Shown one piece after another: positions 18,658 through 39,988 of a stretch of 64,000 bases of DNA (positions are counted from its first letter, which is position 1; each line of letters opens with the position of its first letter). Origin of the DNA: Pseudomonadota bacterium. Lineage in GTDB: Bacteria > Bdellovibrionota > FAC87 > UBA2466. Position numbers and translations under genes: made by a program. The stretch covers positions 16,143-80,142 of the forward strand of contig RFNO01000053.1 of NCBI GenBank assembly GCA_009927165.1. The letters run 5' to 3'. The notes beneath the pieces were generated by a model. It was not told the DNA's origin, searched no databases, and saw only the letters and a list, made by a program, of their open reading frames with translations.

Positions 18658-18785
18658 GATGGAGCGGCCAGGGAATACGCTGGTAACGCAAAGCGATAGA
18701 TTTGAGCTGAAAGTGTGAAGAAATTTTCAAAATAATCCGATAGGGAGTATGGCCCACAAGTGCACTGGGCCAGGACACCTTATCA

Positions 18786-20693: not shown

Positions 20694-20755
20694 AGTTATA
20701 GGTTTGGTAAGTGGAAAAATTTTCCTACCTGCGGACAAAAGTTCCCGTCAATCCA

Positions 20756-20848: not shown

Positions 20849-22267
20849 TTGTTTCTGAACAATTTTTCTAACAATTTCAAGAAAAAGTCGGAGCAATCTG
20901 TGTCTATTCGTCGAATCTTGATTTGCGAAGGTGACTCTCAAATATCCAAAAGATATCGAGAGGTTTTAGAGGGTAATGGGTACTGGGTTCAAGAGAGTCC
21001 AGATATTGCTGAGGCAATCAGGTTGGCTACCAAGCAGACATTTCACCTCTGTCTCTGGGGATATCAGGATAGCGAGGGGTTAAACAAACTCCAAAGTTTT
21101 CGCGCTGAGCGTCCAGGTTGTGCCGTCGTTGTTCTAGGATCGGAAAACAGTCCTTCCTCTATTGTGAACTTGATGAGGGCGGGGGCTTCTGATTTTTGGG
21201 ATTCGAACCAAGAAATAGCCGGATTACTGACCGTTATTGAAGAGAATTTAGGGAGAATTATTTCCACTCCCCCTGATTTGAGCCAAAACGAGTTTTCCAT
21301 TCCCCAATTCGTGGGAAGACATCCTAAGATTCTTGAGATTTTCCAGCTCATTATGAGCATTAAAGATACGGACTCAAATGTACTCATTACCGGAGAGAGC
21401 GGAACTGGAAAAGAAGTCGTGGCCAGAGCTATTCACGATTTGAGCCCGAGAAAAAAACTACCCCTAATTGCCGTTAATTGTGGAGCGATACCGGCAACAC
21501 TTCTGGAAAGTGAGCTCTTCGGCCATATGAAGGGAGCCTTTACTGGGGCAACTCAAAACCGTATTGGGCGTTTTCAATTGGCTGGGCAGGGAACTTTATT
21601 TTTGGACGAAATCAGTGATCTGTCTTTGGATTTACAATCCAAAATTCTAAGAGCTATTCAGCAAAAAGTTTATGAACCTGTGGGAAGTGCTCACAGCCTG
21701 TATCTAAACGCCAGAATCATTGCAGCTTCCAATCAAAATCTTGAGACTGCAGTGGGTGAAAAGAGATTCAGAGAGGATCTTTATTATCGACTAAACGTGA
21801 TTCCTATTAATATCCCACCGCTTCGTGATAGGAAGTCAGATATTCCCCTTCTTGTTAAAGCCTTTACCGACAAATTTGCTAGTCAGTATGCGAGAGAAGT
21901 CACAGGGGTATCTGAAGACTCATTGAGAATTCTGATGCAGTACCATTGGCCAGGAAATATTCGTGAGCTAGAGAACTTAATCGAGCGAGTAGTAATCCTT
22001 AAAAGAGATAAGGGAATCATCGACGTTAAAGACTTGCCTATCGAGCATTTTAAACGGGTTACTTTGGATAGGTATATCAGTAGCGTGTCCCTTCCAGATA
22101 ATGGTTTGGACCTAAATGATGCTATCAACGATTTCGAAAATGAATTAATCATACAGGCACTTCAAAAGACACAGGGCAATAAAAACAAAGCTGCTTATCT
22201 TTTGAACTTGAATAGAACTACTTTAGTAGAGAAGTTAAAGAGAAAAGGTCTCAAACTCGCTTGTTAG
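20849..22267 (+). CDS. Sigma-54-dependent transcriptional activator with a degenerate (non-phosphorylatable) receiver-like N-domain, FleQ/FlrA-like
   Basis: AAA+ sigma-54 interaction motifs [29 protein letters not shown]. Fis-type HTH at the C-terminus. N-domain aligns to REC, but the phospho-acceptor Asp and conserved Lys positions are replaced. Confidence 0.7.
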
Positions 22268-24658: not shown

Positions 24659-25184
24659 ATTTAAGGGATTTTACAAAAGTTAAAAAATCTTTGGTCTCCT
24701 GAGCTGATATTGCTTTTGGACTCATCAGCGAGAAATCAAAAACACAGCCCCGTTTTTTTACAACAACAATATCAAGCAAAAAGGGTACTCCCTCCGAACT
24801 GGCTCTCACACGACTGTAAAGAGCTTCACTGCCTGAAACAACAAGTTCTTCCTCTCTTTCGATTTTTATGTTTCTCGACCCAATCAAAAGCTCTTTTGTC
24901 AAAACTCGTAAACTCGCCTCTTTGTGTTTGTTACACGAGCTTGTCACTGTGACGGTATTTCCCGATGGGAGCTGGTAAGCCTCATCGCTTTCACCATCAC
25001 TCCCTCTTCTTTGCCACTGACGAGGAGCTGAAAGCTGATAATCGTTTGCTCTTCGAATTTCGCTGCCACCCCCACCCAAAACGGCACATCCTGTAGTGAA
25101 ACTGATGAAGCTCAGTAGCAATAATATCAGAGGATTTAACAAGGTTGATTTCATGAGCAAATTCCTTAAACGGATTCCTCCCAC
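24645..25184 (-). CDS. Hypothetical lipoprotein (probable start at Met11, ~25154)
   Basis: Signal peptide with lipobox FTTGC. First gene of the mla-like cluster on the minus strand. Confidence 0.4.
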   Translation of the reverse strand: MGGIRLRNLLMKSTLLNPLILLLLSFISFTTGCAVLGGGGSEIRRANDYQLSAPRQWQRRGSDGESDEAYQLPSGNTVTVTSSCNKHKEASLRVLTKELLIGSRNIKIEREEELVVSGSEALYSRVRASSEGVPFLLDIVVVKKRGCVFDFSLMSPKAISAQETKDFLTFVKSLKYATD

Positions 25185-25323
25185 TTATCGGAATGTTTTG
25201 ATGAGATTTACAGCATTGAAAAATGCTCAGATCGGAGCTTTGCGGCGAAGCCAAATAGTTGACGGTCTGACAAAATACTTGCTCATCCTGGGCAGGTAAC
25301 AGCAAAAAACAGAGCTGAAACTT

Positions 25324-25339
25324 CGGCACGTACTTTGCT
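25324..25339 (+). promoter_or_regulatory. Sigma-54 (-24/-12) promoter candidate cGGCAC-gtact-TTGCt
   Basis: 9/10 match to TGGCAC-N5-TTGC with correct GG-N10-GC spacing. Intergenic, oriented toward the TPR/EBP operon. Confidence 0.4.
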
Positions 25340-27713
25340 CTTTACTTTAAACGTGCACATTAAACTTCGCGTTAATTATTCAGTTCTTTACGTGTTGAGC
25401 TTCGTGTTTGCCCTGTCTGGACGCCCCGCAACAAATTTCTGGGAATTGAAAGATCTGGATCTCCCCATGCCATTTTGTGAAGGGGTGACCAATCTAGAGG
25501 TGGCCCCTACTTATTTCACAGAAATTGAAAATCAATTAGGCGGAACGCCAGAGTACAATGGCTTGATTCAAAGCTATCATCGCAAAGATTGGGAAAAGTT
25601 AGGCAATGAAATTGCAACTTTTCGCAGGGTATTTGAAACTTCACGACTTCAAGAAGCTGTTGATTTTCTGGAACTCCAGGCCCAATTAGACCAAATTCCA
25701 AATTCAGAGCCGAGTCAGATCAAAAAGTTCGAATCAAAGTTTAGAGAGATTTTACTCCTCTATCCCCATTCAACATTGGCACCTGTCCTATCAGCCTCTT
25801 TGGCGAGTTTCTATCTGAAAAATGGATCTTATGCGAAAGCCCTAGGGCTGTATCAAACAGGAAAGCAGGAGTATCCCTTTCACCCCAGCGCCTGTGTTTT
25901 TCTCCTCGGTAGTGCCGAGTCGCAGTATCTTCTTCACAACTACGAAGATGCCAAAAAAGGATTCAGCCAAGTTCTTCAAAAGTGCGATGCGGCTAGATTG
26001 CAAATGGGCTCTCGAATCAGACTCATCGATATCGACAGAGAATCGGGACAAGACCTCAAAAAAATAGAAAAAGCTTACGAGAAGATCCAAGTGAAAAATG
26101 GCCACTTAATTTCCCGATTCCACCCCGAGCTCCTATTCAATTTAGGAGAACTTAAATACCGTCAAGGAAATTATCCAAGCGCCTCCTTCTATTTCAACGA
26201 GTTTACAAAAGTAGAGGAGCATTTTTCCGAATGCCAAGCTCCCCTTCGGAAGCGACTAGCAGACTTGTCGGTAAAACGAAAAGATAAGCTTCCCGCAGTG
26301 ATTGGTAATTATTTAACCGTAAAAGAAAAATTCCCAAAAAGTGATTGGGGACACTTTTCGAAAGCCCACGCCTTGTTGATGGAATTTAAAGATCTGGACT
26401 CAGCTGAAATTGAGAGGCGTTTAACGGTAGTCGATGAAGAGCTGTTAGCAATTAAGGACGAAAAACTTCGTACGGTTGGTAACATAGAAAAGGGGTTATC
26501 CCTTCTTGAAGCAAGCAATGAAGAAGCTCTTGGTTACCTATCTAAATTGAATGAGCAGAATGGCTTTGATTTGAAGCAAGGAGAAGTGGGATCTTTCATT
26601 CGAGTGAACACGTTACAGGTCCTGGAAAAATTAGCTCGAACCCCGTCAACAGTTTCCCAAGCTGAACGAGATGAGAAGTTACTAGCCCCACTTGAGCATT
26701 CCTACAAAGAATGGTTTGAGGGCACACCCATGGCCAAAAAGGCGCAAAACCTTTACCGAGATCTCATCGTGCAGAGCGCTTTGGAAAATCTTGAGCAAAA
26801 AGGGTTGAAAAAGTCATTGGAGAAGTTAGAGCGCTGGCAGACTTCTTCATTATTTAATCAGCAAAAAGTAGAGTTAAGTACTAAAATGAAACTGGGCGAC
26901 TCTCTTGTCCGTTGGTGGTTTAGCGAAACCAATCGAGATGAGAAAAAATCAGCCGAACGTCTGCTCGATAAAAAAGAAGTCATATCTGCTTTGATTAGTC
27001 CGGAGTATGACCCACTCTGGTTACAGACCTACTTAACAGTAGAAAAACCGCTCGAATTAGAAGTGGCTCTTAAGGCCATGGAAAAACAGAGAAGTATTGC
27101 TTCTGCTTTTAAGCCTAAAGATGGCCTAATTTCCTCCTATCTGGCATTGATGATGGGTAGGGCTTTTCGCGAAGCAAAACAATACCAAAAAAGCGAAGAA
27201 TCGCTTTCAAAAATCACTCACCCCAAACTCAGTGCCCTAAAAAGGCTTGAACAAGTAAAAACTTTTTCGAGTGCGGGTCAGTTTGAAAAAGCCCTCAAAA
27301 TTGGTTTGAGAGGATTAGAAAAAGCAGACCTGGCCTCTTCTGGTGCCTATCTGGACTTAATGAAGCGATCCGTACTTGCCGGGAAAAAATGGGGTCTCTC
27401 GGAAGAAGTTTTAAAATCAGCTCAAAAAAAGGGATTAAAGGAAAAAGATTTAGCTCCTTTCTTAGCAATGTCGGCAAGAGCGGAGCTTGAAAAGTCGAAT
27501 TGTTCGCTATCTATTAAGCGTTATGAAGAGGCTATTAAGATTGCCCCTGATTCCCCTGAGAAATTAGAAAACCGTTTCTATCTGGGTAAGTGTCGGAGCA
27601 AAATGAAAGATACCAAAGGGGCCATCAAGGAGTGGAGAGAAATTGCTTCTCAAAAGGACGAGTTTTGGAGTCCGCTTGCTGAAAATGAAATCAAACTATT
27701 GGAGTCGCCATGA
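25335..27713 (+). CDS. Large TPR-repeat protein with N-terminal hydrophobic segment; the true start is probably downstream of the annotated 25335
   Basis: Multiple TPR-like helical repeats ([18 protein letters not shown]...). Stop overlaps the start of the downstream sigma-54 EBP (ATGA). Confidence 0.55.
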
Positions 27714-28660
27714 CAACGCTGAATTTTCATCACCGAAAGATGCTGATTGCTGATGAGTTGATGGAAAAGCTTTTGAAAACGTCTCGGAGAGCAGCAATGG
27801 CCGACTCTTCAGTCCTTCTCTGCGGAGAAAGTGGGACTGGCAAAGAATTAATTGCTCGTTATATCCACGAGATCAGCAACCGAAGGGAAATGCCATTTAT
27901 CAGTGTGAACTGTGCAGCTATTCCGGAGGGACTTATGGAAGCTGAGCTCTTTGGATATGAAAAGGGAGCTTTCACGGGTGCACTAGTACAAAGAATCGGA
28001 AAATTCGAACGGGCCCAAGGTGGAACACTTTTGTTAGATGAAGTCAGTGAAATGTCATTGCCCTTACAGGCCAAGTTGCTTCGGGTTTTGCAGGAATCGG
28101 AAATAGACCGATTAGGTGGTAAGGGGCCTATCCGAATTAACACAAGAATTATCGCAACCACGAACAAAGATCCTTTTGAATTGATCAGTAAAGGGTTGTT
28201 CCGGGAAGATTTATACTATCGCCTAAATGTATTTAGAATTGAATGCCATCCTCTGCGCGAAAGACGGGAAGCCATTAGAAAACTGTCTCAATTTTTTCTG
28301 GAGAATCTGAGGGAGCGATATGAGCTTCTCAATCAGACTTTCAGTGCCGAAGCCTTGGAAAAGTTAGACAAACATTCATGGCCTGGAAATATAAGAGAGT
28401 TGGCAAATGCCATTGAACGGACCGCCTTAATGACAGAAGAGGCACTCATCGGTCCTGAGCATATCAGTTTCTTACGGTCACACCCGCGCCCAGTTGAAAT
28501 GGAAACAGTGAGTGAAGAATCACTAGCTGCGTTGGAGAAAAGGCACATTGAAAAGATGCTGGAGAAGGTCGATGGAAATCGTACGGAAGCAGCCAGGAAA
28601 CTGGGGATAAGTGTAAGGACTCTGAGAAATAAGCTTAAGGAATATCAAGCTCCATCCTGA
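27710..28660 (+). CDS. Sigma-54-dependent transcriptional activator, activator-only (AAA+ plus Fis HTH, no receiver or sensor domain), PspF-like architecture
   Basis: [25 protein letters not shown]. 316 aa, starting directly in the AAA+ domain. C-terminal HTH. Confidence 0.8.
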
Positions 28661-28734
28661 AAAAAAGTCCACTTAGTATGGAAGGATTTTCCTAACTCAG
28701 GCCGGCAAGGAGCAAATTTTGTGCGAGATTGACC

Positions 28735-28750
28735 TGGCCTTAAGTTTGCA
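28735..28750 (+). promoter_or_regulatory. Sigma-54 promoter TGGCCT-TAAGT-TTGCA upstream of flgB
   Basis: GG-N10-GC spacing and 8/10 core match plus A. 45 nt upstream of the flgB ATG, immediately downstream of the EBP gene. Confidence 0.55.
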
Positions 28751-28794
28751 GCTTTACCTTATCGGCATTTCTCCAAAAAACTTAAGAGATTTCT

Positions 28795-29172
28795 ATGACA
28801 CTGTTCGATAAAACCATTGATACTTTATCAAAGTCTCTAGACCTGCATCTGCTTCGCCAATCAGTAATCAGTGACAATATTGCGAATGCGGAAACACCCG
28901 GGTTTAAAGCCAGAAAAGTCGAATTTGAAAGTGAACTTCAACGAGCTGTTGAAGCTAATGAGACTGGAGTTAGCGAACCGGCCGTATTGTCAGTTGAGGC
29001 AAATATTACTCAAGATCCCCACTCTGAATTGGGTCAGGATCTCAATACAGTAGATATGGATCGCGAGATGGCCGCAATGACGAAAAACGACATTCAGTAT
29101 TCCGCTAATACTCAAATGATTAACAAAAAGTTTACTTTTCTTAAGTATGCCATCGGGGAAGGACGTAACTAA
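28795..29172 (+). CDS. flgB: Flagellar basal-body rod protein FlgB
   Basis: ISDNIANAETPGFKARKVEFE rod-protein N-terminal motif. Confidence 0.85.
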   Translation: MTLFDKTIDTLSKSLDLHLLRQSVISDNIANAETPGFKARKVEFESELQRAVEANETGVSEPAVLSVEANITQDPHSELGQDLNTVDMDREMAAMTKNDIQYSANTQMINKKFTFLKYAIGEGRN

Positions 29173-29615
29173 TGGGTGATTTCTTTCAGTCTATTGATGT
29201 AAGCGCATCAGCTTTAAGTGCAGAACGAATGCGCATGAACACTACCTCAAGTAATTTAGCAAATGCCCAAACTACACGAACACCTGAAGGCGGACCTTAT
29301 CGCCGGAAAGATGTTGTTTTTGAAGCTGAAACGACCCGAAGTTTTGCTTCGGAATTAGCAGGGCAAATGAAAGAAGTTCCTCTACATCGAGTAAAAGTGA
29401 CAGATGTCGTTTCTGATCCGAATCCTCCCAAGTTAGTTTATCAACCCGGACATCCCGATGCCAATCCGGAAGGATTCGTTGCTTATCCTAATATAAATAC
29501 AATGGAAGAAATGGTGAATTTGATCACTGCGAGTCGAACTTATGAAGCCAACGTCACATCGATTAATGTGACCAAAGGCATGATGAATAAGGCCCTTGAA
29601 ATAGGGAGAAAATAA
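29172..29615 (+). CDS. flgC: Flagellar basal-body rod protein FlgC
   Basis: SASALSAERMRMNTTSSNLANAQTT motif. ~147 aa. Confidence 0.85.
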   Translation: MGDFFQSIDVSASALSAERMRMNTTSSNLANAQTTRTPEGGPYRRKDVVFEAETTRSFASELAGQMKEVPLHRVKVTDVVSDPNPPKLVYQPGHPDANPEGFVAYPNINTMEEMVNLITASRTYEANVTSINVTKGMMNKALEIGRK

Positions 29616-29618
29616 TAA

Positions 29619-29921
29619 ATGAATATCTCAAGTATTAGTCCCAATTTAATTCCTAATGAAGCTCCCCTTTCCTCAAGCCCCCCCACGCAAGAGGCAAAAG
29701 GAGAAACATTTACTGAGTTTTTAAGCCGTTCGATTGATCAAGTGAACGACCTTCTGGCAAATGCTGATAAAAGTGCCACTGATCTAGCAACTGGAAAATC
29801 TGAGAATCTACACGATGCCATGATCACTATGGAAAAAGCTGAAACAGCATTCAAGCTTTTGATGCAAGTTAGAAACAAAGTGATTGATGCTTATCAAGAA
29901 GTCATGCGGATGCAGGTTTGA
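29619..29921 (+). CDS. fliE: Flagellar hook-basal body complex protein FliE
   Basis: ~100 aa. FliE-like C-terminus and operon position. Confidence 0.75.
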   Translation: MNISSISPNLIPNEAPLSSSPPTQEAKGETFTEFLSRSIDQVNDLLANADKSATDLATGKSENLHDAMITMEKAETAFKLLMQVRNKVIDAYQEVMRMQV

Positions 29922-29943
29922 TTTTTAGCTATTTAGGAGCGAC

Positions 29944-31731
29944 ATGAACGAGACACTTCAAAGATGGCTTGAGACAGCTCAGTCGTATTTCGAGACTTTC
30001 TCAAGACAGAAGAAAATTCTGGTGGGCGTTACTGCTGCCCTAGTTGTGACTGGCTTGGTCGCACTTACCGTAATGCTTCGACGTGATCCCATGCAGGTTC
30101 TTTACTCGGAACTTCGACCTGAAGAAACTAAAAGTGTTTCTAAAAAGCTCAGCGAACAAAACGTTCCTTACCAAGTCAGTGAAGATGGGGCTACTATTTC
30201 AGTGCCCTCCAGCCAAGTGTATCGAGCTCGAATGGAGTTGGCTAAAGAGGGATTGCCTGGCCAGGATCTCGTGGGATTTGAAAAATTTGATGCTTCAACA
30301 ATTGGGATGTCAAGTTACGTGCAGCGGATTCAGTATGTACGGGCTGTTCAGGGTGAATTGACTCGCTCTATCCAGAGATTGGCTTCCGTTAAGACCGCTA
30401 GAGTTCACATTAGTGTTCCGCCTAAAAAAACTTTTCTTGAAGAAGAAGATCCTCCAAAAGCATCCGTGGTCTTAGAGTTGCGAGCGGGAATGACTCCCTC
30501 AAAGCAAGAAACGGCTGGGATCGCTCATTTAGTGGCCAGTGCCGTTGAAGGTCTAAAAGTTAATCAAATCACAATTGTAGATACTAAAGGAAATTTCCTG
30601 CATCGCCCAGAAGACAGTCTAACTCCAGCTATTCCTTCAGCACTGTTAGAGATGCAGCGCGCCATTGAAGTGGAGTACGAGAGACGTATTGAAGAAATGC
30701 TCACGCCAGTGGTTGGTTTTGGTAAAGTACGTGCCAAAGTAACTGCAGAAATTGATCCGTCGAGAGTAAATACAACCGAAGAGACATTTGACTCCGAAAA
30801 AGCAGTCCCCCGGAGTGTGACAAAAATGGATGAAAGCAATTCCGGTTCCCGCCCTAACCCCATGGGAATTCCTGGCAGTCGATCAAACTTGCCCGGTACT
30901 GAAGTCAACAATCCCCCGTCACCCGTTGCAACCAGTTCAAATGAAAAAAATTCCAGCAACACTACCTATGCCATTCCGAGAAAAGTTCAAGTCGTCGATA
31001 AGCCCAGTGGGTCTATCAAGAGGTTAACGATAGCGGTGGTGGTTGACGGTTATTACAATAAAGCTCCTAACGCTACAACTGAGACCTTTGCTCCCCGAAA
31101 TGAGGAAGAGCTCCGTCGAATTCAGGATCTGGTTGCAAATTCGGTTGGTTTTGATTCCGAGCGGAGAGACAGCATCACAGTAAGCTCCATGCCGTTTAAC
31201 ACTAATGAAATCAAGGACACCGATGAAAAGCAGACTCCGGCTGTCACATGGCAAAACTTAGCCCCGCAAATGCTTAGAAATGGTCTTGTAGCCCTTGTTT
31301 TCCTAGCATTCTTCTTCTTAGTGATGCGGCCTTTCTTAAAATGGATGAGCAGTTCCGAATCAGCAAACAATAGGAACAAAGACGGAACTCTGGTTCCTCG
31401 AACAGTGGGTGAGATAGAAGCAGCGGTAAAGGCTGCCAGCGAATCGGGAGTTCAAGCCGATCAGGTTGCCGAAGCTTTGATGGCACAGGCCAATGATGCC
31501 TCAGGCAGCGCAGGAACCAACCCAGAAATTGCCGCACAAATGGCAGCCAACGATGAAGATGATAACGTGATTCGGGGAGTCTTTGGTGATACTGCTGAGA
31601 AAAAAGAGGAGCGTCAGCTGAAAAAGCTGATCGTCGAGCAGATAGAAAAATCACCCAAGAAGAGCTTCAGAATTTTACAGGATTGGATCGAAGAAGATGA
31701 TGAAATGAAGGCCTCTGAGGTAAGTGCATGA
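29944..31731 (+). CDS. fliF: Flagellar M-ring protein FliF
   Basis: N-terminal TM, conserved FliF/YscJ region (GQDLVGFEKF...RIQYVRAVQGELTRSI), second TM near the C-terminus. Confidence 0.85.
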   Translation: MNETLQRWLETAQSYFETFSRQKKILVGVTAALVVTGLVALTVMLRRDPMQVLYSELRPEETKSVSKKLSEQNVPYQVSEDGATISVPSSQVYRARMELAKEGLPGQDLVGFEKFDASTIGMSSYVQRIQYVRAVQGELTRSIQRLASVKTARVHISVPPKKTFLEEEDPPKASVVLELRAGMTPSKQETAGIAHLVASAVEGLKVNQITIVDTKGNFLHRPEDSLTPAIPSALLEMQRAIEVEYERRIEEMLTPVVGFGKVRAKVTAEIDPSRVNTTEETFDSEKAVPRSVTKMDESNSGSRPNPMGIPGSRSNLPGTEVNNPPSPVATSSNEKNSSNTTYAIPRKVQVVDKPSGSIKRLTIAVVVDGYYNKAPNATTETFAPRNEEELRRIQDLVANSVGFDSERRDSITVSSMPFNTNEIKDTDEKQTPAVTWQNLAPQMLRNGLVALVFLAFFFLVMRPFLKWMSSSESANNRNKDGTLVPRTVGEIEAAVKAASESGVQADQVAEALMAQANDASGSAGTNPEIAAQMAANDEDDNVIRGVFGDTAEKKEERQLKKLIVEQIEKSPKKSFRILQDWIEEDDEMKASEVSA

Positions 31732-32750
31732 AGGAAATGAGAAACGGTCAATTAACTGGGATTGAGAAAATCGCAGTGCTAATGAATGTCATTGGCAAAG
31801 AAAAGTCTGGTGAGCTGTTGAAGCAAATGAAAGACTCAGATGTTCGCCGACTGCTGAAAGTGATGAGCAGCATGAAGAAGGCACCCGTGCAGCTTATCAA
31901 TGATGTACTTAAAGAGTACCTTTATAAATTAAGTGAAAAAGATGAAATTATTTTCGAAGAAAACCTTTCTGAACCAGAATTGATAAGTCAGGTTCTTGGC
32001 TCAGAACGCGCAAAGCAAATTTTCGGAGGCAACAGAGCGGTCAATCTGGTTGAGCGAAAGAGTCTGACCGTTTTGGAAACGGTAGATCCAAAGACTCTTG
32101 CAGAGTTTCTTGTGGATGAGCATCCTCAAACAATTGCATTAATTATCGCCCACATGGATGTGGAACAACAAATCACCATGATTAAAGCTCTTCCCGATAA
32201 TCTCAGGCCAGAAATTGTCACTCGAATGGCTACCCTTGAATATGTATCTCCTGAGAAAATTGACGAATTAGACGAAGTTCTTAAAAGAGATCTCATTGGC
32301 AAGGCAGTAGGAAACAAGAATCAATTTGGCGGAGTGCCAGCTATTGCGGATCTCATTAATAATCTCGATAAAAGAACAATGACTTCTTTAATGACTCGCC
32401 TTGAAGATAAAGATCCAATACTGGCTGTAGAGATAAAGCAACATATCTTTAGTTTTACGGATGTTATTAAGATCGATAATCGAGGCCTCCAATTGGTCCT
32501 TAGGGACGTTCCAAATCAAACTCTGCTTTTGGCCCTGAAAAATGCGCCTGAAGAACTAAGAGAAAAGCTTTATGAAGCAATGTCTGAGCGGGCAGCAGCC
32601 ATGTTGAAAGATGACTTAGCAGCGTTAGGTCCACAGCGAGTATCAGACGTTGAAAAGGCTCAGAAAGAAATTGTGACTGTAGTCAAACGACTAGAAAAAG
32701 AAGGGAAAATTATCATTGGCGTGGGTGAAGAGTCAGATATGGTCCCCTGA
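31728..32750 (+). CDS. fliG: Flagellar motor switch protein FliG
   Basis: LTGIEKIAVLMNVIGKEKSGELLKQM start and conserved FliG middle and C domains. Confidence 0.85.
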   Translation: MKEMRNGQLTGIEKIAVLMNVIGKEKSGELLKQMKDSDVRRLLKVMSSMKKAPVQLINDVLKEYLYKLSEKDEIIFEENLSEPELISQVLGSERAKQIFGGNRAVNLVERKSLTVLETVDPKTLAEFLVDEHPQTIALIIAHMDVEQQITMIKALPDNLRPEIVTRMATLEYVSPEKIDELDEVLKRDLIGKAVGNKNQFGGVPAIADLINNLDKRTMTSLMTRLEDKDPILAVEIKQHIFSFTDVIKIDNRGLQLVLRDVPNQTLLLALKNAPEELREKLYEAMSERAAAMLKDDLAALGPQRVSDVEKAQKEIVTVVKRLEKEGKIIIGVGEESDMVP

Positions 32751-33573
32751 CCAAATAAGGGAACAAGGGGAGTTTGTTCGTTTTCGGGCAGCCGATGTGC
32801 GCACTTTGCCTCAGTTTTCGGAGGCTGTAGCTCAGAAGGCTTCTGCTTGGAGCGGTGAAGTGTCCCAATCAACTGGCGAACATTTTCGTATGGCTGGCGA
32901 GTATTGGGATGGCCTCATGAATGATCCCATGTTCCGAGAGCGTTTTGATGCTTTGGTCGAGAAAGAAGTAAGGTCTCGCCTGTTGAAACGTTTGGAACAT
33001 CATGAAACTGAAGTTTTACCTGAAATTTCAAAAGAAGCCATGAAGCAAGGATATCAAGAGGGAAAAAATTTAGCCCATGAGCAGCTCGAGGAAGAAATCA
33101 ATAAGATCGAACAAAATCTGACTTATACTTGGCAGGAAAAAGTTGGCGAACTAGAGAAAAGCAAAACTGAAGCCTCCGCGCTATTAGATTCTCTTGTTGC
33201 TGAATGGAAAAATCAGCGTGAATCCCTTTTGCACAGCCATGAGCGCGAATGGTGCCAAGCTATGTTGCATCTCATGAAAAGATTCCAGATGGAAAAGAGT
33301 GAGAGTTATGGAAAAGCTCTTGAAATTTGGATGGCTGAAGCGATACCGGAATTTGTAACCAAGAGCCCTGTCACTGTTTGTGTGCCGGACTATGAATGGG
33401 AAAAATACGCCGATTGTCTTGGAAAAAAAGAAAGTGAAGGAAAATGGCATCTGGTGCGAGACTCAAAATTAATGCCTGGACAAATTCGATTTGAAGCTGG
33501 GGCCGGCGGGGCGATTTTCGATTCCGGAAATAATTACCAAAAATTAGTGGATTGGTTGGAAACAATCAGATGA
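32716..33573 (+). CDS. fliH: Flagellar assembly/export protein FliH (start uncertain)
   Basis: Position between fliG and fliI. Coiled-coil. C-terminal ...GGAIFDSGNNYQKLVDWLE resembles the FliH/ATP-synthase-b-like C-domain. Confidence 0.55.
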   Translation: MAWVKSQIWSPDQIREQGEFVRFRAADVRTLPQFSEAVAQKASAWSGEVSQSTGEHFRMAGEYWDGLMNDPMFRERFDALVEKEVRSRLLKRLEHHETEVLPEISKEAMKQGYQEGKNLAHEQLEEEINKIEQNLTYTWQEKVGELEKSKTEASALLDSLVAEWKNQRESLLHSHEREWCQAMLHLMKRFQMEKSESYGKALEIWMAEAIPEFVTKSPVTVCVPDYEWEKYADCLGKKESEGKWHLVRDSKLMPGQIRFEAGAGGAIFDSGNNYQKLVDWLETIR

Positions 33574-34870
33574 ATCTAGAACAATTCTGCAAACAAATCC
33601 GAGATGAGTCGTTTGTAACATTTTGTGGACGTGTGACGAAAGTTAGAAGAGATTCGGTTCGGGTCTTCGTACCTAACGCAAAAGTGGGCTCGGTGGTTAT
33701 GGTTCAGGGGAGACAGAAAGAAATTCCGTTAGAAATCGTTAGTTTAGATCCAGAAGGTCATGTCGCAATGCCTTTGGATGAATTAAACAGTGTTCAGTTA
33801 GGTGACCTCGTTACACTTCGCGAAGAACAAGCAGTTATCCCCGTTGGAAAGGAACTGCTTGGCCAAGTCGTTGATTCACTCTGTAGGCCACTTGAGACAA
33901 ATAGGAAGCTCAATTTACCAGATTCCATTTCGCTTTATGGTGAATACTTAAACCCAATGGATCGAACGATTATTCGGGAACCTATCGACTTGGGCGTGAG
34001 GACAATAAACGCCCTTCTTACTTGTGGTCTTGGCCAAAGAGCAGGAATTTTCGCTGGTTCAGGAGTGGGTAAAAGTGTTCTGTTAGGGATGATGGCTAGA
34101 TTTACTTCTGCAGATGTTGTGGTTGTGGGACTTATCGGAGAACGAGGCAAAGAGGTACGAGAGTTTATAGAGCACGAGTTGGGAGAAGAAGGCAGAAAAA
34201 AAAGTGTGACTGTCGTCGAAACAGCTGAGAAATCTCCCGTCAGGCGTGTCCGTGGAGCATATGTTAGTACTGCTATAGCGGAATATTTTCGAAAACAAGG
34301 TCTACAAGTGTTGCTCTTAATGGATTCTCTTACTCGCTTTGCGATGGCACAGCGAGAAATCGGTATGGCGGCGGGCGAGCCACCCACCAGTAAAGGTTAT
34401 ACGCCTAGTGTATTTTCGGGAATTTCCCGACTGGTTGAGCGTGCGGGAAATTTCGGGGCCGAAGGCAGCATCACTGGTCTTTATACAGTTTTGGTTGAGG
34501 GAGATGACTTAGAGGATCCGGTTGCAGACAGTGCCGGTCAATCTTGGACGGCCACTTGGTATTATCCCGAAAAATAGCAAACAAAGGACAATATCCAGCA
34601 ATCGATATCTTGCAGAGTGTGAGCCGAGTAATGGATCAAGTTACCGAAAAGACTCACTCCACATCGGCACGAAGGGTAAAGCAAATCTTAGCTCGCTTTC
34701 AGGATAACGAAGATGCAATTAACTTAGGTCTCTATAATAGAGGGAGTGACCAGACAATTGACGAAGCGATTGAGAAAGAACCTATTATCCTCGATTTCCT
34801 CAAACAAGGAAGAGACGAGCACTCATCATTTTTTGATTCGAAAAGTAAACTCTTGGAAATTGCTAGATGA
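33552..34870 (+). CDS. fliI: Flagellum-specific ATPase FliI, interrupted by a -1 frameshift near 34533-34537 (reading frame continues in ORF 34544..34870); possible pseudogene or sequencing error
   Basis: Walker A GSGVGKS and Walker B LLLMDSLTRFA in the first ORF. The FliI C-terminus DGHLVLSRKIANKGQYPAIDILQSVSR is in the next frame. A single missing C in gcc(c)gg would restore ...VADSARSILDGH... Confidence 0.8.
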
Positions 34871-35301
34871 GATTTAAATTCCGGCTCGAAAAAATTGCGA
34901 ATTATTTTACGCAGAAGGAATTTGCAAAAAAAATTGAGTTAGCAAAAGTGTTGAGAGATTTGGCTCAGAGCAAAAGCCTAAAAGAATCAATTGAAAGAGA
35001 AAACCTAGGGTTGTTAAAAAACCAAAGCCAAAAATCACAAGTAGGAGTCGAGTGGTTAAAGCTCTTCATGGATCGTATCGACCACAACATCATTTCACTT
35101 GAGAAATTAAAAGTTGTGATTGGAGAACAGCAAACAGTGGTTGATCTAAAAAGAAAAGAGCTCAACATTCTGAGCGCTAAAAAGAAAGCTCTCGAAACCA
35201 TGCGCGATAAAAAGATGGCGGAATTCAAAGTGATTGCAAATCGAAACGCACAGAAGAAGTTGGACGAAAGCTTTGAGCTATTAAAGACAGAAAAAAAATG
35301 A
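34867..35301 (+). CDS. fliJ: Flagellar export protein FliJ
   Basis: MRFKFRLEKI... N-terminus typical of FliJ. All-coiled-coil, ~144 aa, directly after fliI. Confidence 0.6.
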   Translation: MRFKFRLEKIANYFTQKEFAKKIELAKVLRDLAQSKSLKESIERENLGLLKNQSQKSQVGVEWLKLFMDRIDHNIISLEKLKVVIGEQQTVVDLKRKELNILSAKKKALETMRDKKMAEFKVIANRNAQKKLDESFELLKTEKK

Positions 35302-35915
35302 ACAGACTTTTTACATTTATCCTATTATGTTTCGCTGGATTACTTCCCGCTCATCTCAGTGCAGATGTATCAAAAGTGGAAGAAATCGGGAATCAGAAAA
35401 AACTTCTCGAACAGAGAGAGCAGGAACTCAATGCTCGGGAGGCGACACTAAAGGAGCAGATTGCAAGCCATGTTCGCGTCATACAGGACCTTCAGGAAAG
35501 ATTTAGCAAGGACAAGCGCGCCATGGAGGAGAAGCTGAATCAGCGAGAAGTTGAGTTGAATAAAAAGCTGATCGAAAAAGAGCAGGAGCTCAAAAAAAAG
35601 ACGATTGAACTTGAGAGTGTACGAGACCATCGCGCCAAAAGTTATCGACTGATCTACGAAAAAATGGAGCCAAAAAATGCGGCAAAGATTCTGGAGGATA
35701 TCGATGCTTCACTTGCATTGCAGATTTTAGCCGACATGAGGGAACAAAAGGCCGCTGAAATTTTATCTAAAATGAACCCAGAGAAGGCGAGAAGTATTAC
35801 TGAGTACGGGTTTGGAAAAAGACAGTTGGCCTCGCCAGCTGGAGGCAACCAAAAGATTTCTCAAAAGGTCAATGAAGTAAACGAGAAGAGTCCGATAGCT
35901 CCCATCGGAGAGTAG
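35298..35915 (+). CDS. Flagellar protein with MgtE_N-like domain (FlbB/MotE/YlxF-like)
   Basis: Signal peptide, coiled coil, then PKNAAKILEDIDASLALQILADMREQKAAEILSKMNPEKARSI (MgtE N-terminal-like). Same position as ylxF/flbB in Firmicute and spirochaete fla operons. Confidence 0.55.
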   Translation: MNRLFTFILLCFAGLLPAHLSADVSKVEEIGNQKKLLEQREQELNAREATLKEQIASHVRVIQDLQERFSKDKRAMEEKLNQREVELNKKLIEKEQELKKKTIELESVRDHRAKSYRLIYEKMEPKNAAKILEDIDASLALQILADMREQKAAEILSKMNPEKARSITEYGFGKRQLASPAGGNQKISQKVNEVNEKSPIAPIGE

Positions 35916-35945
35916 TCCAAAAATCAAAGAAAGGAGGTAAAAACA

Positions 35946-37244
35946 ATGCTACATAATATTTATTCAAGCAGTCTTAATCTGTCTGCTTTGTCCGTTATGG
36001 GTGGTGAAAGTCTGGGCTTGCCTGAGACAGGAGAATTCGATTTTTTGAATTATCTTTTGGGCCTTCAGGTAACGAGTTCGGAAAGCTCAACTGAATTAGA
36101 TGGATTGATGTCTGGATTGAACGCTAAGAATGGTCAGGAGTCTAAGCTTGATTCTAATGAAGCCCTTTTGGAACTTTTTGATCGAAAGGCTTCAAGAGAT
36201 TCGTCGGTGCTTATTGGGCAACCGATGATGGGACCGGTTCAGCCTCAAGTTGCTCCCTTAACTGTTCAAACAGTTCAAAAAATGGAATCTGCTGAAAGCA
36301 CAATGGGCCGTCTTGATGACAAGATTCCCGTTATTAAATCTTATAAAGAAGATAAACAGCAGGTTTTGGGTCAAAATGTACTTGAAGATCCTATCGGTCA
36401 GCTTGCCTTCAACAAGGCGATGTATGATCAGAACCGGAGCTCAGTAAATAGCGGTCCAAGATCCAAGGACGCCGATCCACAGGTTGTGTTCGACCAAAAG
36501 GAAAGAATGATTCAATCCTATATGGGCTCGAAAAAACAACCAGAGGCTAATGCCGATAGTCCAGAGTTAGCCATGGGAAAAGTGACGATTAACGAGACTC
36601 GGTTCGACAATGAAGAAGCAGACACCATCGACGGCCCTAAGCGACAAACTCATCGATCAGAAGAGTTTGATGTCGTTTCTGATACATCGGCACCTATGCT
36701 ACAAAATAACGTAGTTACGGTGAACTCGAAGGTCACAGGGCTGGAGAAAGTGAGCCATCATACGGTTCCTGAGCTCTTCCAAAAAGTCGAATCAATGGTC
36801 CATCACGGCGGAGGAAAACTGACGGTTACTTTGACACCACCCGATTTGGGACAGGTCGAGATACACGTCAGTACCAAAGGCAAGAATGTTGAGGTTTCTG
36901 TGAAATCAGATAACGATTTTGCAAAAGCCGCCATTGAAAGCCAAGTCGCTGATCTCCAGCAGTCTTTGCAGAATCAGGATCTTAATTTGAGTAAAATTGA
37001 GGTCCACGTCAGCAGAGAAATGGAGCCATCATTTTTAGAAAATCAATATGCTCAGTTTTCTGGAAATGGAAGTCTGTACCAGCAGTCACAAAGCTCGCGT
37101 CAGGATTCAGCAAAGAATCCCTGGCAAGTGAATCACCTGGATAGTTCTCATCCACGGAATCGGATGACTACCACATCAGCTGTTTCGACAGCTGCTTTGC
37201 ATGGGGTTAACCAAGGAACTGGACGAGTTGATATCCGCATCTAG
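35946..37244 (+). CDS. fliK: Flagellar hook-length control protein FliK
   Basis: Low-complexity N-terminal region and conserved C-terminal Flg_hook domain (GGGKLTVTLTPPDLGQVEIHVS...). Confidence 0.7.
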   Translation: MLHNIYSSSLNLSALSVMGGESLGLPETGEFDFLNYLLGLQVTSSESSTELDGLMSGLNAKNGQESKLDSNEALLELFDRKASRDSSVLIGQPMMGPVQPQVAPLTVQTVQKMESAESTMGRLDDKIPVIKSYKEDKQQVLGQNVLEDPIGQLAFNKAMYDQNRSSVNSGPRSKDADPQVVFDQKERMIQSYMGSKKQPEANADSPELAMGKVTINETRFDNEEADTIDGPKRQTHRSEEFDVVSDTSAPMLQNNVVTVNSKVTGLEKVSHHTVPELFQKVESMVHHGGGKLTVTLTPPDLGQVEIHVSTKGKNVEVSVKSDNDFAKAAIESQVADLQQSLQNQDLNLSKIEVHVSREMEPSFLENQYAQFSGNGSLYQQSQSSRQDSAKNPWQVNHLDSSHPRNRMTTTSAVSTAALHGVNQGTGRVDIRI

Positions 37245-37253
37245 AGAGAAACC

Positions 37254-38213
37254 ATGAACGAATTATCTGCTGCTTTGCCAAGTAAGCTCACCGAGATGCC
37301 TGCGGAAAGATCTAAACCCAAGAACACTTTGGGTAAGGATGATTTTCTCAAGCTTCTCATGGCGCAGCTGAATAATCAGGATCCCCTTAAGCCAATGGAA
37401 CACCAGGAGTTCTCAGCTCAATTGGCACAATTCGGATCCTTGGAGCAGTTACAAAATATCCACAAGGGGATTGAGAATCTTCAAGGGGGTATGGGTAACG
37501 AGTCCAAGCTTTCGGCAATTGGCATGATTGGAAAGCAAGTTCATGCCAATGGTAACGAGGTGAATCTGGTTGAAGGTCAGGCCATTAATCTTACTTTTTC
37601 AAAAAAGGAGGGGATTAATCCTGTGCAAGCACAGATCTATTCGGAATCTGGAAAAGTGGTACGTGAACTGGATATCGATCCAAGAACTAAAAATGGTGAA
37701 ATTAGCTGGGATGGAAAAGATCAAGAAGGAAAAGCACTCCCGTCAGGAAAATACACGTTTAGAGTGCAAGGAGTTGGCTCATCGGGCCAAGCCGAAGAGC
37801 TGGGAGCAGAGCTCTCTGGACGTGTGACGGCAGTTGAAATGAACGGGAATAATCCCGTGCTTGTAGTTCAAACTGCCTCGGGAACTTCCAAACTTGAACT
37901 TAATAAAGTTAATACAGTTACTCAGGATTCAGGTTCGAACTCCAAAGAAAGTTTGAGCCCGAAGCTTGATAAAAGTAAAGCAAGTGAAGCTAAAACCATT
38001 GCTAACAATCTGAAGGGGCTTTCTTCAGCGGAAAACACAAATGAATCGGAAGGAACCACCGCAGTGAAATCGGCAAGTAACAGCATACCTGTTGATATTT
38101 CTGAGGTGGTTAATGTCGATTCGAGTGAAAATGAAAGTGAAGAAGGAATTCCTTGGGAAGACCAGTGGCGAGGCTTTCCTGCTTTTGCTTCTCCAAAGGA
38201 TCTCAGACCATGA
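37254..38213 (+). CDS. flgD: Flagellar hook capping/assembly protein FlgD, with a long Ser/Glu-rich C-terminal extension
   Basis: KDDFLKLLMAQLNNQDPLKPMEHQEF FlgD N-motif and the hook-cap domain. 319 aa versus the typical 140-230. Confidence 0.8.
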   Translation: MNELSAALPSKLTEMPAERSKPKNTLGKDDFLKLLMAQLNNQDPLKPMEHQEFSAQLAQFGSLEQLQNIHKGIENLQGGMGNESKLSAIGMIGKQVHANGNEVNLVEGQAINLTFSKKEGINPVQAQIYSESGKVVRELDIDPRTKNGEISWDGKDQEGKALPSGKYTFRVQGVGSSGQAEELGAELSGRVTAVEMNGNNPVLVVQTASGTSKLELNKVNTVTQDSGSNSKESLSPKLDKSKASEAKTIANNLKGLSSAENTNESEGTTAVKSASNSIPVDISEVVNVDSSENESEEGIPWEDQWRGFPAFASPKDLRP

Positions 38214-38608
38214 GCATTCAAGATCTCTATAGAGCTGGGAATTTTTCGATAAATCCTTCTGGAGTAGGTTCGATTGGTGATCGACCGTCAATCGGTAGCA
38301 CCAAAGCTCCTACCAATCCGGATGAGTTTCAAAAGGTTCTTCGACAAGAAGAAGGAAAAATCAGCATGTCGCAACATGCGGAAACACGCATTCGTTCTCG
38401 TGAAATTCCGTGGAGTGCGGCAATGGAAAAACGGGTAATGGGTGGCATCGAAGCTCTTGAAGCCAAGGGCAGCCGAGAAGCGCTGATTCTCGCTGATGAT
38501 GTCGCTTTTATTGCCAATATCCGGTCGAAAACCATTGTAACGGCGATGGATCGAACGCAACTAAAAGAACGAGTTTTCACAAATATTGATAGCGCCGTTC
38601 TAGTCTAG
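38210..38608 (+). CDS. Small conserved-position flagellar operon protein of unknown function (between flgD and flgE)
   Basis: ATG overlapping the flgD stop (ATGA). 132 aa, no TM. Possibly related to the 'flagellar operon protein' family found between flgD and flgE in Firmicutes; not verifiable here. Confidence 0.4.
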   Translation: MSIQDLYRAGNFSINPSGVGSIGDRPSIGSTKAPTNPDEFQKVLRQEEGKISMSQHAETRIRSREIPWSAAMEKRVMGGIEALEAKGSREALILADDVAFIANIRSKTIVTAMDRTQLKERVFTNIDSAVLV

Positions 38609-38637
38609 CTGAGGCTGCCACCTCAGTTTTAACAAAA
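38609..38637 (+). terminator. Weak hairpin plus T-tract (ctgagg-ctgcca-cctcag-tttt) between the small ORF and flgE; possible attenuator or processing site
   Basis: 6-bp stem followed by TTTT. Low stability. Confidence 0.25.
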
Positions 38638-38710
38638 ACTCCCAAAGCTGGCCCGTGTTTTCGGTGCTTCCACACCTAAAACGGAAGCTTTGGATTATCT
38701 AGGAGGAAAC

Positions 38711-39988
38711 ATGGGTGTTGTATCTTCAATGAGTACTGCTATTTCAGGGCTTGAGGCCAATGGACAAGCCTTGGGCGTAATTACCGATAACATCGTAAAT
38801 GCCAATACAACCGGGTTCAAAGCATCTCGCTCTGAGTTCCAGAATATCCTGGCTGAAACAGGAGCCGGCGGAATTCAAGTTGGTCGTGGTGCTGGTCTGG
38901 CCGGTGTAACCAATATCTTAAATCAGGGGTCCATTACGCATACGGATCGTCCCACTGATCTTGCGATCAGCGGTAACGGTTTCTTCGTGCTAAAAGGGGA
39001 TGCCCTAGGCCAAACTTACACAAGAGACGGAAGTTTTCGTTTCGATAAAGATGGCTTCTTAGTCAATCTCAATGGTTATCGTGTTCAAGCATATGAAGCG
39101 ACTCCTGGTGGGCAGATTACTGGAAAAATGACAGATATTCGTATTCCCTATAATACGATCGCAGCTAAAGCGAGTGAGCGAGTGCAAGTCCACTTGAATC
39201 TGGATGCTCGAACAGCAGTCGGAGCTCCCCTTGATTTAGTCAAACCGGAAGAGTCAGCCCAGTTCAATACTGGAATCCAGGTATTTGACTCAGTCGGAAA
39301 TGCTCGACCGTTGACGATGTATTACAACAAAACCTCTGAAAACGTTTGGGAATTCCATGCGATGACTGACGGGGCAAATCTTATGGATGGAGTGCCTGGC
39401 GAACAAAGTGTTGTTATTCAGGGAACTCTTTCATTTGATCCCAATGGTCGACTCGAAAGCGTTCAACAAAATATCGTGAACAGCAACTTCGTGGGAGCCA
39501 TTCCGGACCAGAATCTCTATCTCGATTTTGGTGATCCGACTGATCAGTTGGGTACAGGAGAAAAGGGTACCACCCAATATGGTTCGAAAAGTGCTATGTT
39601 CCGAAATGTTCAGGATGGATGGGCAGCGGGTGTGTTAACGGATACATCTATCGATGCCGACGGGATGGTAAGTGGAATCTACACTAACGGTCAGAATCGT
39701 ACCTTGGGTCAACTGGGTGTTGCTCGTTTTGAATCGACGGAACGTCTTTCTAAAATGGGTGACAACCAATTCCGTGAAAGCGTCCTTTCGGGTCAACCCC
39801 TTATTGGAAAACCCAACACAAACGGAAGAGGCATTGTCATGACCAAGAGTCTTGAGCAATCAAACGTAGATTTAGCTCATGAATTCGTGCAGATGATTAA
39901 GGCACAACGAGGCTTCCAAGCATCTGCAAAAGGAGTCACAACAGCTAATGAAATGCTAGATGAAGTAGTGAACATTAAGAGTCGCTAA
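38711..39988 (+). CDS. flgE: Flagellar hook protein FlgE
   Basis: ATG at 38711 with an AGGAGG RBS. MGVVSSMSTAISGLEANGQA...NIVNANTTGFK N-motif and the conserved C-terminal motif. Confidence 0.85.
   Translation: MGVVSSMSTAISGLEANGQALGVITDNIVNANTTGFKASRSEFQNILAETGAGGIQVGRGAGLAGVTNILNQGSITHTDRPTDLAISGNGFFVLKGDALGQTYTRDGSFRFDKDGFLVNLNGYRVQAYEATPGGQITGKMTDIRIPYNTIAAKASERVQVHLNLDARTAVGAPLDLVKPEESAQFNTGIQVFDSVGNARPLTMYYNKTSENVWEFHAMTDGANLMDGVPGEQSVVIQGTLSFDPNGRLESVQQNIVNSNFVGAIPDQNLYLDFGDPTDQLGTGEKGTTQYGSKSAMFRNVQDGWAAGVLTDTSIDADGMVSGIYTNGQNRTLGQLGVARFESTERLSKMGDNQFRESVLSGQPLIGKPNTNGRGIVMTKSLEQSNVDLAHEFVQMIKAQRGFQASAKGVTTANEMLDEVVNIKSR

Follow-up and report, generated by a model that had tools for sequence, protein, structure and literature searches.

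In Vibrio, Pseudomonas, Campylobacter, and Caulobacter, sigma-54 is well known to control the flagellar rod and hook genes. In V. cholerae, the hierarchy runs from FlrA to FlrBC and then to the flgB operon, and in P. aeruginosa from FleQ to FleSR and then to flgBCDE; both are two-tier sigma-54 hierarchies. In Caulobacter crescentus, FlbD binds paired sites at sigma-54 and at non-sigma-54 flagellar promoters and activates or represses accordingly, and it is controlled by a partner protein (FliX) and not by phosphorylation. Other enhancer-binding proteins (EBPs), the activators of sigma-54, have no receiver domain and are controlled in trans, as PspF by PspA or HrpR/S by HrpV, with FleQ/FleT of Rhodobacter sphaeroides as flagellar examples. 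Here we describe a 64-kb stretch of contig RFNO01000053.1, from an uncultured, Bdellovibrio-like freshwater member of the Bdellovibrionota (hereafter the window), in which a sigma-54-type element at 28735–28750 precedes flgB and the rod and hook operon that flgB opens. Since such control is well known, the promoter itself (PflgB) adds little. It is very probably genuine, and it is accompanied by a putative receiver-less activator and by a putative FliA (sigma-28) promoter that faces it on the minus strand.

Sigma-28 is the other relevant factor. In C. jejuni and H. pylori, the middle-class flagellar genes depend on RpoN and FlgSR, and FliA- and RpoN-linked small RNAs (sRNAs) occur in C. jejuni (PMC11187230, PMC4626219, PMC3372290), where sigma-28 drives a feedback on flagellar expression through trans-acting sRNAs (PMC11187230). 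In B. bacteriovorus, the mapped attack-phase promoters have the consensus TTAAG-N16-CCGATA (Karunker et al. 2013, PMC3627812). A long antisense "excludon" is present in the flagellar locus of Listeria (mentioned in PMC3627812). For the Bdellovibrionota, our literature search found FliA alone described as a regulator of the flagellar or attack-phase genes.

The sigma-54-type element before flgB and its conservation

The elements of the spacer between flgB and the EBP gene upstream of it that bear on sigma-54 are the following.

28735–28750, plus strand: sigma-54 −24/−12 element of PflgB, TGGCCTTAAGTTTGCA (TGGCCT-TAAGT-TTGCA), identified by its sequence and by its conservation in relatives
28658–28692, palindromic: tandem palindromes GGAAA-N3-4-TTTCC, candidate upstream activator site before flgB (A1 consensus and motif search)
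28716–28725, strand not assigned: conserved block TTTTGTGC(C)T, in which the GC at 28723-4 (about −38/−37; A1 columns G93 and C94) never varies, also kept in the minus-strand alignment

Exactly 10 nt separate the GG (28736-7) from the GC (28748-9), the spacing of a sigma-54 promoter, and 44 nt separate TGGCCTTAAGTTTGCA from the ATG of flgB at 28795. The predicted start of transcription is at ~28761. No sigma-70-like site was found by promoter scan in the 134-nt spacer. The first-pass annotation of the window had reported this motif upstream of flgB, with the same coordinates and the same GG-N10-GC spacing, and all three are recovered from the sequence.

Relatives were found by a FlgC scan of species-representative genomes and are uncultured Bdellovibrionota. 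The identity of FlgC is 95–96% in metagenome-assembled genomes (MAGs) from Lake Lanier and 70–81% in MAGs of the Bdellovibrionaceae and "Pseudobdellovibrionaceae." Alignment A1 contains the EBP–flgB spacers of the window (WIN) and of 13 family-level relatives; further loci, including conspecific contigs 99.88% identical to the window, were reached via a search with the EBP. In all 13 family-level relatives, the best −24/−12 match of the spacer is TGG(C/T)-N7-TTGC(A/T), located 42–95 nt before the start of flgB. In A1, where the mean column identity is 41%, TGG and TTGC do not vary at all, with a freely variable 7-nt stretch between them. The same holds in four additional loci (L081, L082, L084, and L087; invariant TGG and TTGC, free spacer), and TGGCCTTAAGTTTGCA is identical in the conspecific contigs. 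The motif is also kept in the outgroups L014, L016, and L019. By our arithmetic from base frequencies, the pattern should occur by chance about 0.002 times per 150-nt spacer. With its presence in all relatives, this makes the motif a phylogenetic footprint, which is the main evidence for PflgB: the orthologous positions are kept and the flanks have diverged, as selection on a sigma-54 element predicts.

Upstream of the element, two palindromes follow directly 3′ of the stop of the EBP gene, 6–10 nt apart. The proximal copy is GGAAGGATTTTCC (28680–28692); the distal copy, TGAAAAAAAGTCC (28658–28670), is degenerate and overlaps the EBP stop codon. They are centered at about −75 and −97 from the predicted start of PflgB, ~50–70 nt upstream of the −24 GG. 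Over the family-level loci and the window (~0.4 Mb), tandem pairs occur only before flgB and before a second EBP gene (REC-EBP, see below), and shuffled sequences give 0.12 tandem pairs per 64 kb. The window's own flgB pair falls below the threshold of the scan because its distal copy is degenerate. The TTTTGTGC block lies ~12 nt upstream of the −24 element; by eye, no convincing IHF-like or sigma-70 match was seen for it.

Several observations weigh against a sigma-54 promoter at this position. Compared with the core consensus TGGCAC-N5-TTGCW, TGGCCTTAAGTTTGCA agrees at 9/11 positions (TGGCCT against TGGCAC), so that the earlier wording "near-consensus" is right for the exact spacing and generous for the core. 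The pattern TGGY-N7-TTGCW is found four times in the window against 2.3 expected, a count equaled in 18 of 100 shuffles (the off-register control, with N8 in place of N7, gives three against 2.6 expected); the motif of PflgB is thus not significant by itself, and the window shows no above-chance abundance of the sigma-54 pattern. A weighted scan returns 19 matches against 10.7 expected, with 4/19 in intergenic DNA, which makes up a few percent of the window. The distal palindrome before flgB is, as said, degenerate. Neither rpoN nor fliA lies within the window; the two window EBPs with a GAFTGA motif imply sigma-54, and in B. bacteriovorus, of the same phylum, rpoN is bd0843 and fliA is bd3318 (PMC3464611). 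Finally, in B. bacteriovorus HD100, which belongs to a different lineage, the sole mapped start near the eight-gene Bd3405-3398 operon (the flagellar nature of which is not established) is neither clearly of the sigma-54 nor clearly of the FliA type. That start is non-FliA in Table S2 of PMC3627812, and a GG-N10-GC lies 21 nt from the mapped end, which leaves the comparison ambiguous.

The case for PflgB is carried by comparison among relatives (invariant TGG and TTGC) and not by the quality of the motif. On that basis, the sigma-54 promoter that had been proposed for flgB–flgE is the best-supported reading of the locus, and 28735–28750 is very probably a real sigma-54 promoter.

A receiver-less activator and a second, putative sigma-54 promoter

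Upstream of the spacer, four features of the plus-strand unit that ends at the EBP gene are conserved.

27710–28660, plus strand: receiver-less sigma-54 activator (short EBP), 316 aa, with AAA+ and Fis-type helix–turn–helix (HTH) domains alone (PF00158, 7e-67; HTH_8, 8e-15)
25404–27713, plus strand: TPR-repeat protein, ~769 aa (TPR Pfam matches)
25324–25339, plus strand: second putative sigma-54 promoter, CGGCACGTACTTTGCT, top score of the window in the weighted scan, ~65 nt upstream of the TPR gene
25250–25272, strand not assigned: conserved site GCCAAA-N3-TTGACGGnCTGACA, with columns that do not vary in alignment A4, ~60 nt ahead of the second putative sigma-54 promoter

The short EBP has the marks of an enhancer-binding protein, with Walker A (GESGTGKE), Walker B, and an intact GAFTGA. 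Its 120 best homologues are all 278–338 aa long and bear generic or automatic names, which places it in a large receiver-less clade that is unstudied. Among NCBIfam models, FlbD (NF050807) matches best, with 363 bits and profile positions 116–440 covered; an assignment as a FlbD equivalog was rejected because the score is below the cut-off of 750 and the N-terminal receiver is absent. Structures of ZraR, NifA, FlrC, and FleQ match the AAA+ core about equally (FlrC and FleQ at 1e-70 to 1e-74; PspF at 1e-56). We did not see a histidine-kinase gene among the annotated neighbors.

The adjacency of the EBP gene and flgB is kept across the family and in several other phyla. With an adjacent GAFTGA activator and conserved palindromes, to which binding is predicted, the locus has both the activator and the upstream site that belong to a sigma-54 promoter, and we lean slightly toward the short EBP as the activator of PflgB. 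In Bacteriovoracaceae loci (L025, L034–L037, L046, L051, L054, L056, L058, L059, and L073), the gene upstream of flgB encodes an EBP-like protein ~30% identical to the window EBP and without GAFTGA, and no −24/−12 motif precedes flgB. That protein may be a repurposed or decayed activator. Bacteriovorax was rejected as a control without rpoN, since Bacteriovorax marinus has rpoN; the loss of the motif there thus tracks the loss of GAFTGA in the neighboring gene and not a loss of sigma-54.

In architecture, the short EBP is closest to PspF and HrpR/S (AAA+ and HTH alone, ~320 aa, with a gene for a nonenzymatic partner adjoining), but the regulon is different and neither a PspA-like nor an HrpV-like gene is present. 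The locus is like that of FlbD in its palindromes at both a sigma-54 and a sigma-70-like promoter and in the best NCBIfam match of the short EBP. It differs from FlbD/FliX in the lack of a receiver in the short EBP, in the sequence of the sites, in a TPR protein as the candidate partner, and in a score well under 750.

The start of the short EBP gene overlaps the stop of the TPR gene. The order TPR–EBP–flgB is found in L001–L009, L011–L013, and L081–L090 (the L010 sequence is not long enough to include the TPR gene). The TPR protein, predicted to be co-transcribed with the short EBP, is purely by inference a candidate for its trans-acting controller. Before the TPR gene, CGGCACGTACTTTGCT is nearer to the consensus than the PflgB element. 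CGGCAYR-N4-TTGCT occurs in 22/22 related loci (CGGCAYG in 21) at a distance of 56–153 nt (56–82 nt in 21/22), and in A4, an alignment of 14 sequences upstream of the TPR gene, TCGGCA and TTGCT are invariant. A conserved sigma-54 promoter before the TPR–EBP operon would place the EBP itself under sigma-54 control and so imply a cascade or a loop of auto-activation. The site GCCAAA-N3-TTGACGGnCTGACA is a candidate activator site of a type other than the palindromes.

The second promoter raises the possibility that PflgB is weak and that flgB–flgE is expressed mainly by read-through from 25324–25339, in one unit of ~14.7 kb. The upstream promoter has the better consensus and the highest score of the window, and is invariant in 22/22 loci. 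There is also, as a further point against PflgB, no plus-strand terminator-like hairpin in 28660–28795, so that read-through from upstream could contribute or even dominate. In Oligoflexales loci, the gap between the EBP gene and flgB is ~45 nt and motif-free, which indicates that co-transcription occurs in some lineages. On the other hand, the invariant TGG and TTGC, kept at a fixed distance while the remainder of the spacer has diverged, are hard to explain without sigma-54 selection, and the spacer contains conserved upstream palindromes of its own. We regard predominant read-through as unlikely.

Palindromes shared with a second activator gene

The second EBP gene of the window lies further upstream.

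20900–22267, plus strand: second EBP (REC-EBP), ~455 aa, with REC-like, AAA+, and HTH domains (Pfam; GAFTGA present; 455 aa in relatives)
20713–20745, plus strand: tandem palindromes GGAAAAATTTTCC-N7-GGACAAAAGTTCC, upstream of the REC-EBP gene
20756-61 and 20778-83, plus strand: sigma-70-like promoter of the REC-EBP gene, TTGACA and TAATAT with a 16-nt spacer, 3′ of the palindromes

The gene follows one for a GAF/HD-GYP-type protein (PF13487). The receiver of REC-EBP is weak and, by eye, seems to be without the usual acidic pocket and phospho-acceptor aspartate. REC-EBP would fit a FleQ-like master regulator independent of phosphorylation. Its palindromes and the TTGACA are conserved in L085, L086, and L087 (alignment A2, in which TTGACA is invariant). 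The presence of the same palindromes before flgB and before REC-EBP points to a DNA-binding regulator in common, for which one of the two EBPs is the simplest candidate; the HTH regions of the two differ, and their comparison does not assign the palindromes to either. The first-pass annotation had tied both EBP genes to flagellar function through the flgB promoter. The shared palindrome pair and the adjacent GAFTGA activator make this plausible, at the level of inference only.

A putative convergent FliA-type promoter in the flgB leader

On the minus strand, a second promoter-like element overlaps the start region of PflgB.

28759–28787, minus strand: sigma-28 (FliA)-type promoter, −35 TTAAG at 28781–28785 and −10 GCCGATAA at 28759–28766

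Read on the minus strand, TTAAG-N15-CCGATA corresponds to TTAAGTTT-N11-GCCGATAA. The exact sequence occurs once in the window against 0.02 expected, with the boxes and spacing of a sigma-28 promoter, and it has one mismatch to the classical consensus TAAAG-N14-GCCGATAA. Both boxes are identical to those of the mapped Bdellovibrio consensus, with a spacing of 15 rather than 16. A sigma-28 matrix built from 36 mapped promoters (Table S2 of PMC3627812) gives the site 18.9 bits, against a median of 16.2 for the true sites. All four top matrix matches of the window lie between genes, and the three besides this site are correctly placed upstream of genes. The predicted start is at ~28751 on the minus strand, 9 nt after CCGATA (matrix-based). 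From there, transcription would run leftward through the sigma-54 element and the palindromes and, antisense, into the EBP gene.

Downstream from the −12 element, A1 has invariant TCGG and CTT columns. The sigma-28 motif is conserved, with a match of at least 10/13 in 12/13 relatives and of at least 11/13 in nine (8–10 in the plus-strand control); among random 240-nt windows, about 2.5% reach at least 11/13. The three outgroups with a retained sigma-54 promoter (L014, L016, and L019) lack the sigma-28 motif.

Compared with the FliA attack-phase promoters of B. bacteriovorus (PMC3627812), the site has a close consensus (TTAAG-N15/16-CCGATA) and the same distance from box to start, but the window copy has no downstream gene, is antisense into an activator gene, and overlaps a sigma-54 promoter. 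The sigma-54 start (~28761, plus strand) falls inside the sigma-28 −10 box, and the sigma-28 start (~28751, minus strand) falls beside the −12 element. With starts and boxes that overlap in this way, the two holoenzymes should exclude each other.

No credible minus-strand gene lies downstream from the sigma-28 site for 3.4 kb. A 49-aa open reading frame with a GTG start, antisense to the HTH region of the EBP, was judged spurious as a small protein. A structured sRNA from the antisense promoter was likewise rejected: RNAalifold gives 0 conserved pairs over 13 sequences, and the single-sequence fold has z = −1.0. Over the whole window, Rfam gave no match at the gathering threshold. Without an RNA structure, an Rfam family, or a credible minus-strand gene, a cis role by interference or antisense transcription is the most economical.

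Three points weigh against an active, overlapping FliA promoter. Among 20 one-strand shuffles, the 18.9 bits were attained once. In 4/14 sequences, the sigma-28 box lies 18–51 nt from the sigma-54 element, beside the ribosome-binding site of flgB, so that strict overlap of the promoters is not universal. And part of the sigma-28 block could be conserved as a Shine–Dalgarno sequence.

This last point extends to an alternative in which the site is no promoter at all, with TATCGGCA as the start of the flgB leader, CTTNAGG as the ribosome-binding region, and the whole an accidental mimic of a FliA promoter. In most relatives, the −35-like block does lie 6–9 nt ahead of the ATG, with AGG or GAGG inside it, and there is no minus-strand gene that the promoter would serve. 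In E. coli, noncanonical FliA sites are usually not conserved and the conserved ones are functional (bioRxiv 10.1101/188474). That study can be read both ways here, since noncanonical sites elsewhere are usually nonfunctional and a site conserved in sequence belongs with the functional ones. An accidental mimic does not readily account for both boxes at the correct 14–15-nt spacing in 12/13 relatives, given how few random windows score as high, nor for a window copy with exactly the mapped Bdellovibrio boxes at N15. Furthermore, TATCGG is missing at the start site in those outgroups whose PflgB is of the sigma-54 type. We hold such mimicry possible, if not the likelier case.

The opposite alternative gives the spacer entirely to sigma-28: it would be mainly a platform for a minus-strand FliA antisense or small RNA, and TGG and TTGC would be kept as part of the transcript or as a protein site. 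Within the window, the sigma-28 match is indeed statistically the stronger (0.02 expected against 2.3 for sigma-54), and TGG/TTGC would be nucleotides ~+2 to +17 of the predicted antisense RNA. Yet this RNA has neither conserved pairs nor a notable folding energy nor an Rfam match (see above), the TGG-N8-TTGC geometry is exactly that of sigma-54, and the sigma-54 motif persists in L014, L016, and L019, where the sigma-28 motif is missing. We consider this very improbable.

A convergent FliA promoter, facing a sigma-54 PflgB, is rather likely to be active. That it has a regulatory role is possible and is put forward tentatively. In the form that we propose with the same reserve, FliA might directly shut off the early sigma-54 rod and hook operon, together with its activator, from a face-to-face promoter, as a family-wide switch in cis. 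The switch would act by promoter occlusion, transcriptional interference, or both, and not by a trans-acting anti-sigma factor or sRNA.

Among described systems, Campylobacter and Helicobacter are similar in that rod and hook genes depend on sigma-54 and, as proposed here, non-coding sigma-28 transcription feeds back on them. The difference from Campylobacter is that the window would use a cis antisense promoter that overlaps the sigma-54 promoter, without conserved RNA structure, whereas trans sRNAs act on mRNAs there. As in excludons and convergent interference, an antisense transcript from an alternative sigma factor is predicted to oppose a flagellar operon; unlike in the Listeria excludon, the promoters of the window are face to face, with predicted starts ~10 nt apart. 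No FliA promoter placed face to face with a flagellar sigma-54 promoter turned up in our literature search.

The flgB–flgE operon and its terminator

Downstream from PflgB, 13 flagellar genes occupy 28795–39988 on the plus strand (11.2 kb). They were identified by Pfam/NCBIfam matches.

28795–29172, plus strand: flgB
29172–29615, plus strand: flgC
29619–29921, plus strand: fliE
29944–31731, plus strand: fliF
31728–32750, plus strand: fliG
~32716–33573, plus strand: fliH (weak match)
~33570–34870, plus strand: fliI (frameshifted)
34867–35301, plus strand: fliJ
35298–35915, plus strand: MgtE_N-like gene
35946–37244, plus strand: fliK
37254–38213, plus strand: flgD
~38210–38608, plus strand: TIGR02530 "flg_new" gene
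~38712–39988, plus strand: flgE
40011–40055, plus strand: intrinsic terminator closing the operon, a 16-bp stem with a T-rich tail (40011–40046)
34533–34537, plus strand: 1-nt deletion in fliI (GTGCCGG in the window, GTGCGCGG in conspecific contigs)

The genes overlap or are separated by at most 30 nt, save for ~100 nt ahead of flgE, and relatives show the identical flagellar gene order. The terminator has a folding energy of −30 kcal/mol (z = −7.06). Inside the operon, there are two weak plus-strand hairpins of 6–7 bp (37843 and 39725), none near the strength of the terminal 16-bp hairpin. The first-pass annotation had described 13 flagellar genes with overlaps or short gaps and a strong terminator at 40011–40055; apart from the gap before flgE, this description stands. 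Contiguity on the same strand, the absence of an internal terminator, and a terminator at the end are those of a single operon, for which co-transcription is a prediction. PflgB probably drives the whole 13-gene unit.

In the gap before flgE, an internal sigma-54 promoter was rejected, as the ~100 nt hold just a weak hairpin. This 6-bp hairpin (38612–38633, CTGAGG-ctgcca-CCTCAG with a TTTT tail) immediately follows the TIGR02530 gene, with flgE ~80 nt further on. Within the operon, it might act as a weak attenuator or as an element for RNA processing or stability.

The deletion in fliI splits the gene into open reading frames of 341 and 108 aa, whereas L088 and L089, both at 99.88% identity with the window, encode an unbroken FliI of 433 aa. 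Since the conspecific contigs do not have it, it is probably an assembly error. A second single-base deletion with respect to those contigs occurs at 22289, at the 3′ end of mlaD. Both are probably assembly errors and not pseudogenes.

Other promoter-like sites of the window

The three other strong FliA-type sites of the window are intergenic, as are two further sigma-54-like sites, each pointing toward a gene.

18711–18745, plus strand: FliA-type promoter, upstream of the GAF/HD-GYP-type (PF13487) gene
25183–25217, minus strand: FliA-type promoter, upstream of a 169-aa gene and the mlaEFD operon, kept in most relatives (TTATCGG, A4)
52092–52126, minus strand: FliA-type promoter, upstream of the minus-strand gene 51066–51890
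60372–60387, minus strand: sigma-54-like site GGGCATACGCTTTGCA, before an operon for a VWA protein and a Ser/Thr kinase with an FHA domain (59069–60307 and downstream)
62282–62297, plus strand: sigma-54-like site TGGCCCTTTTCTTGCT, 88 nt before an unannotated 113-aa open reading frame (62384–62725)

A model for the early flagellar tier

In the proposed mechanism, sigma-54 holoenzyme would wait at PflgB as a closed complex, to be opened by an AAA+ activator bound to the tandem palindromes, most likely the receiver-less EBP encoded immediately upstream. Transcription would then proceed from ~28761 to the hairpin at 40011–40046, with the rod, MS-ring/switch, export-ATPase, and hook genes as one unit. 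We hold this combined explanation, with sigma-54 at PflgB and transcription through flgB–flgE, to be highly probable. The short EBP would be made from the second sigma-54 promoter together with the TPR protein, which may gate it in trans, and the REC-EBP gene would carry the palindromes beside its sigma-70-like promoter. The shared palindromes and the second sigma-54 promoter suggest that the REC-EBP, TPR–EBP, and flgB units form one regulatory cascade.

Once sigma-28 is active, RNA polymerase bound to or transcribing the minus strand would exclude the sigma-54 holoenzyme. Antisense RNA would run over the activator sites and on into the 3′ end of the EBP gene, and the early flagellar genes would be shut off. 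What is observed directly are the sequences, where they lie, and how far they are conserved; the transcriptional activities, the pairing of EBPs with sites, and the direction of the sigma-28 effect are read from sequence and are to be taken as predictions.

The model is like the hierarchies of Vibrio and Pseudomonas in having a −24/−12 element directly before flgB, two EBPs in a cascade, sigma-28 late, and homologous AAA+ cores. It is unlike them in that the activator adjacent to flgB is receiver-less and that its gene and the TPR gene are predicted to be transcribed together from a sigma-54 promoter of their own. The operon of the window also differs from theirs in its Bacillus-like order (flgB-fliE-fliF...fliK-flgD-flgE) and in the overlapping convergent FliA promoter.

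What is new is the predicted combination: an activator that is receiver-less, TPR-linked, and sigma-54-driven, together with shared palindromes and a FliA promoter in convergent orientation. The locus offers a concrete and conserved wiring diagram for the early flagellar tier in the Bdellovibrionota, with two sigma-54 promoters, two GAFTGA activators, two kinds of upstream sites, and FliA promoters on neighboring units, including the PF13487 gene. Should the convergent FliA promoter be active, the locus would be a compact case of one alternative sigma factor silencing the promoter of another in cis.

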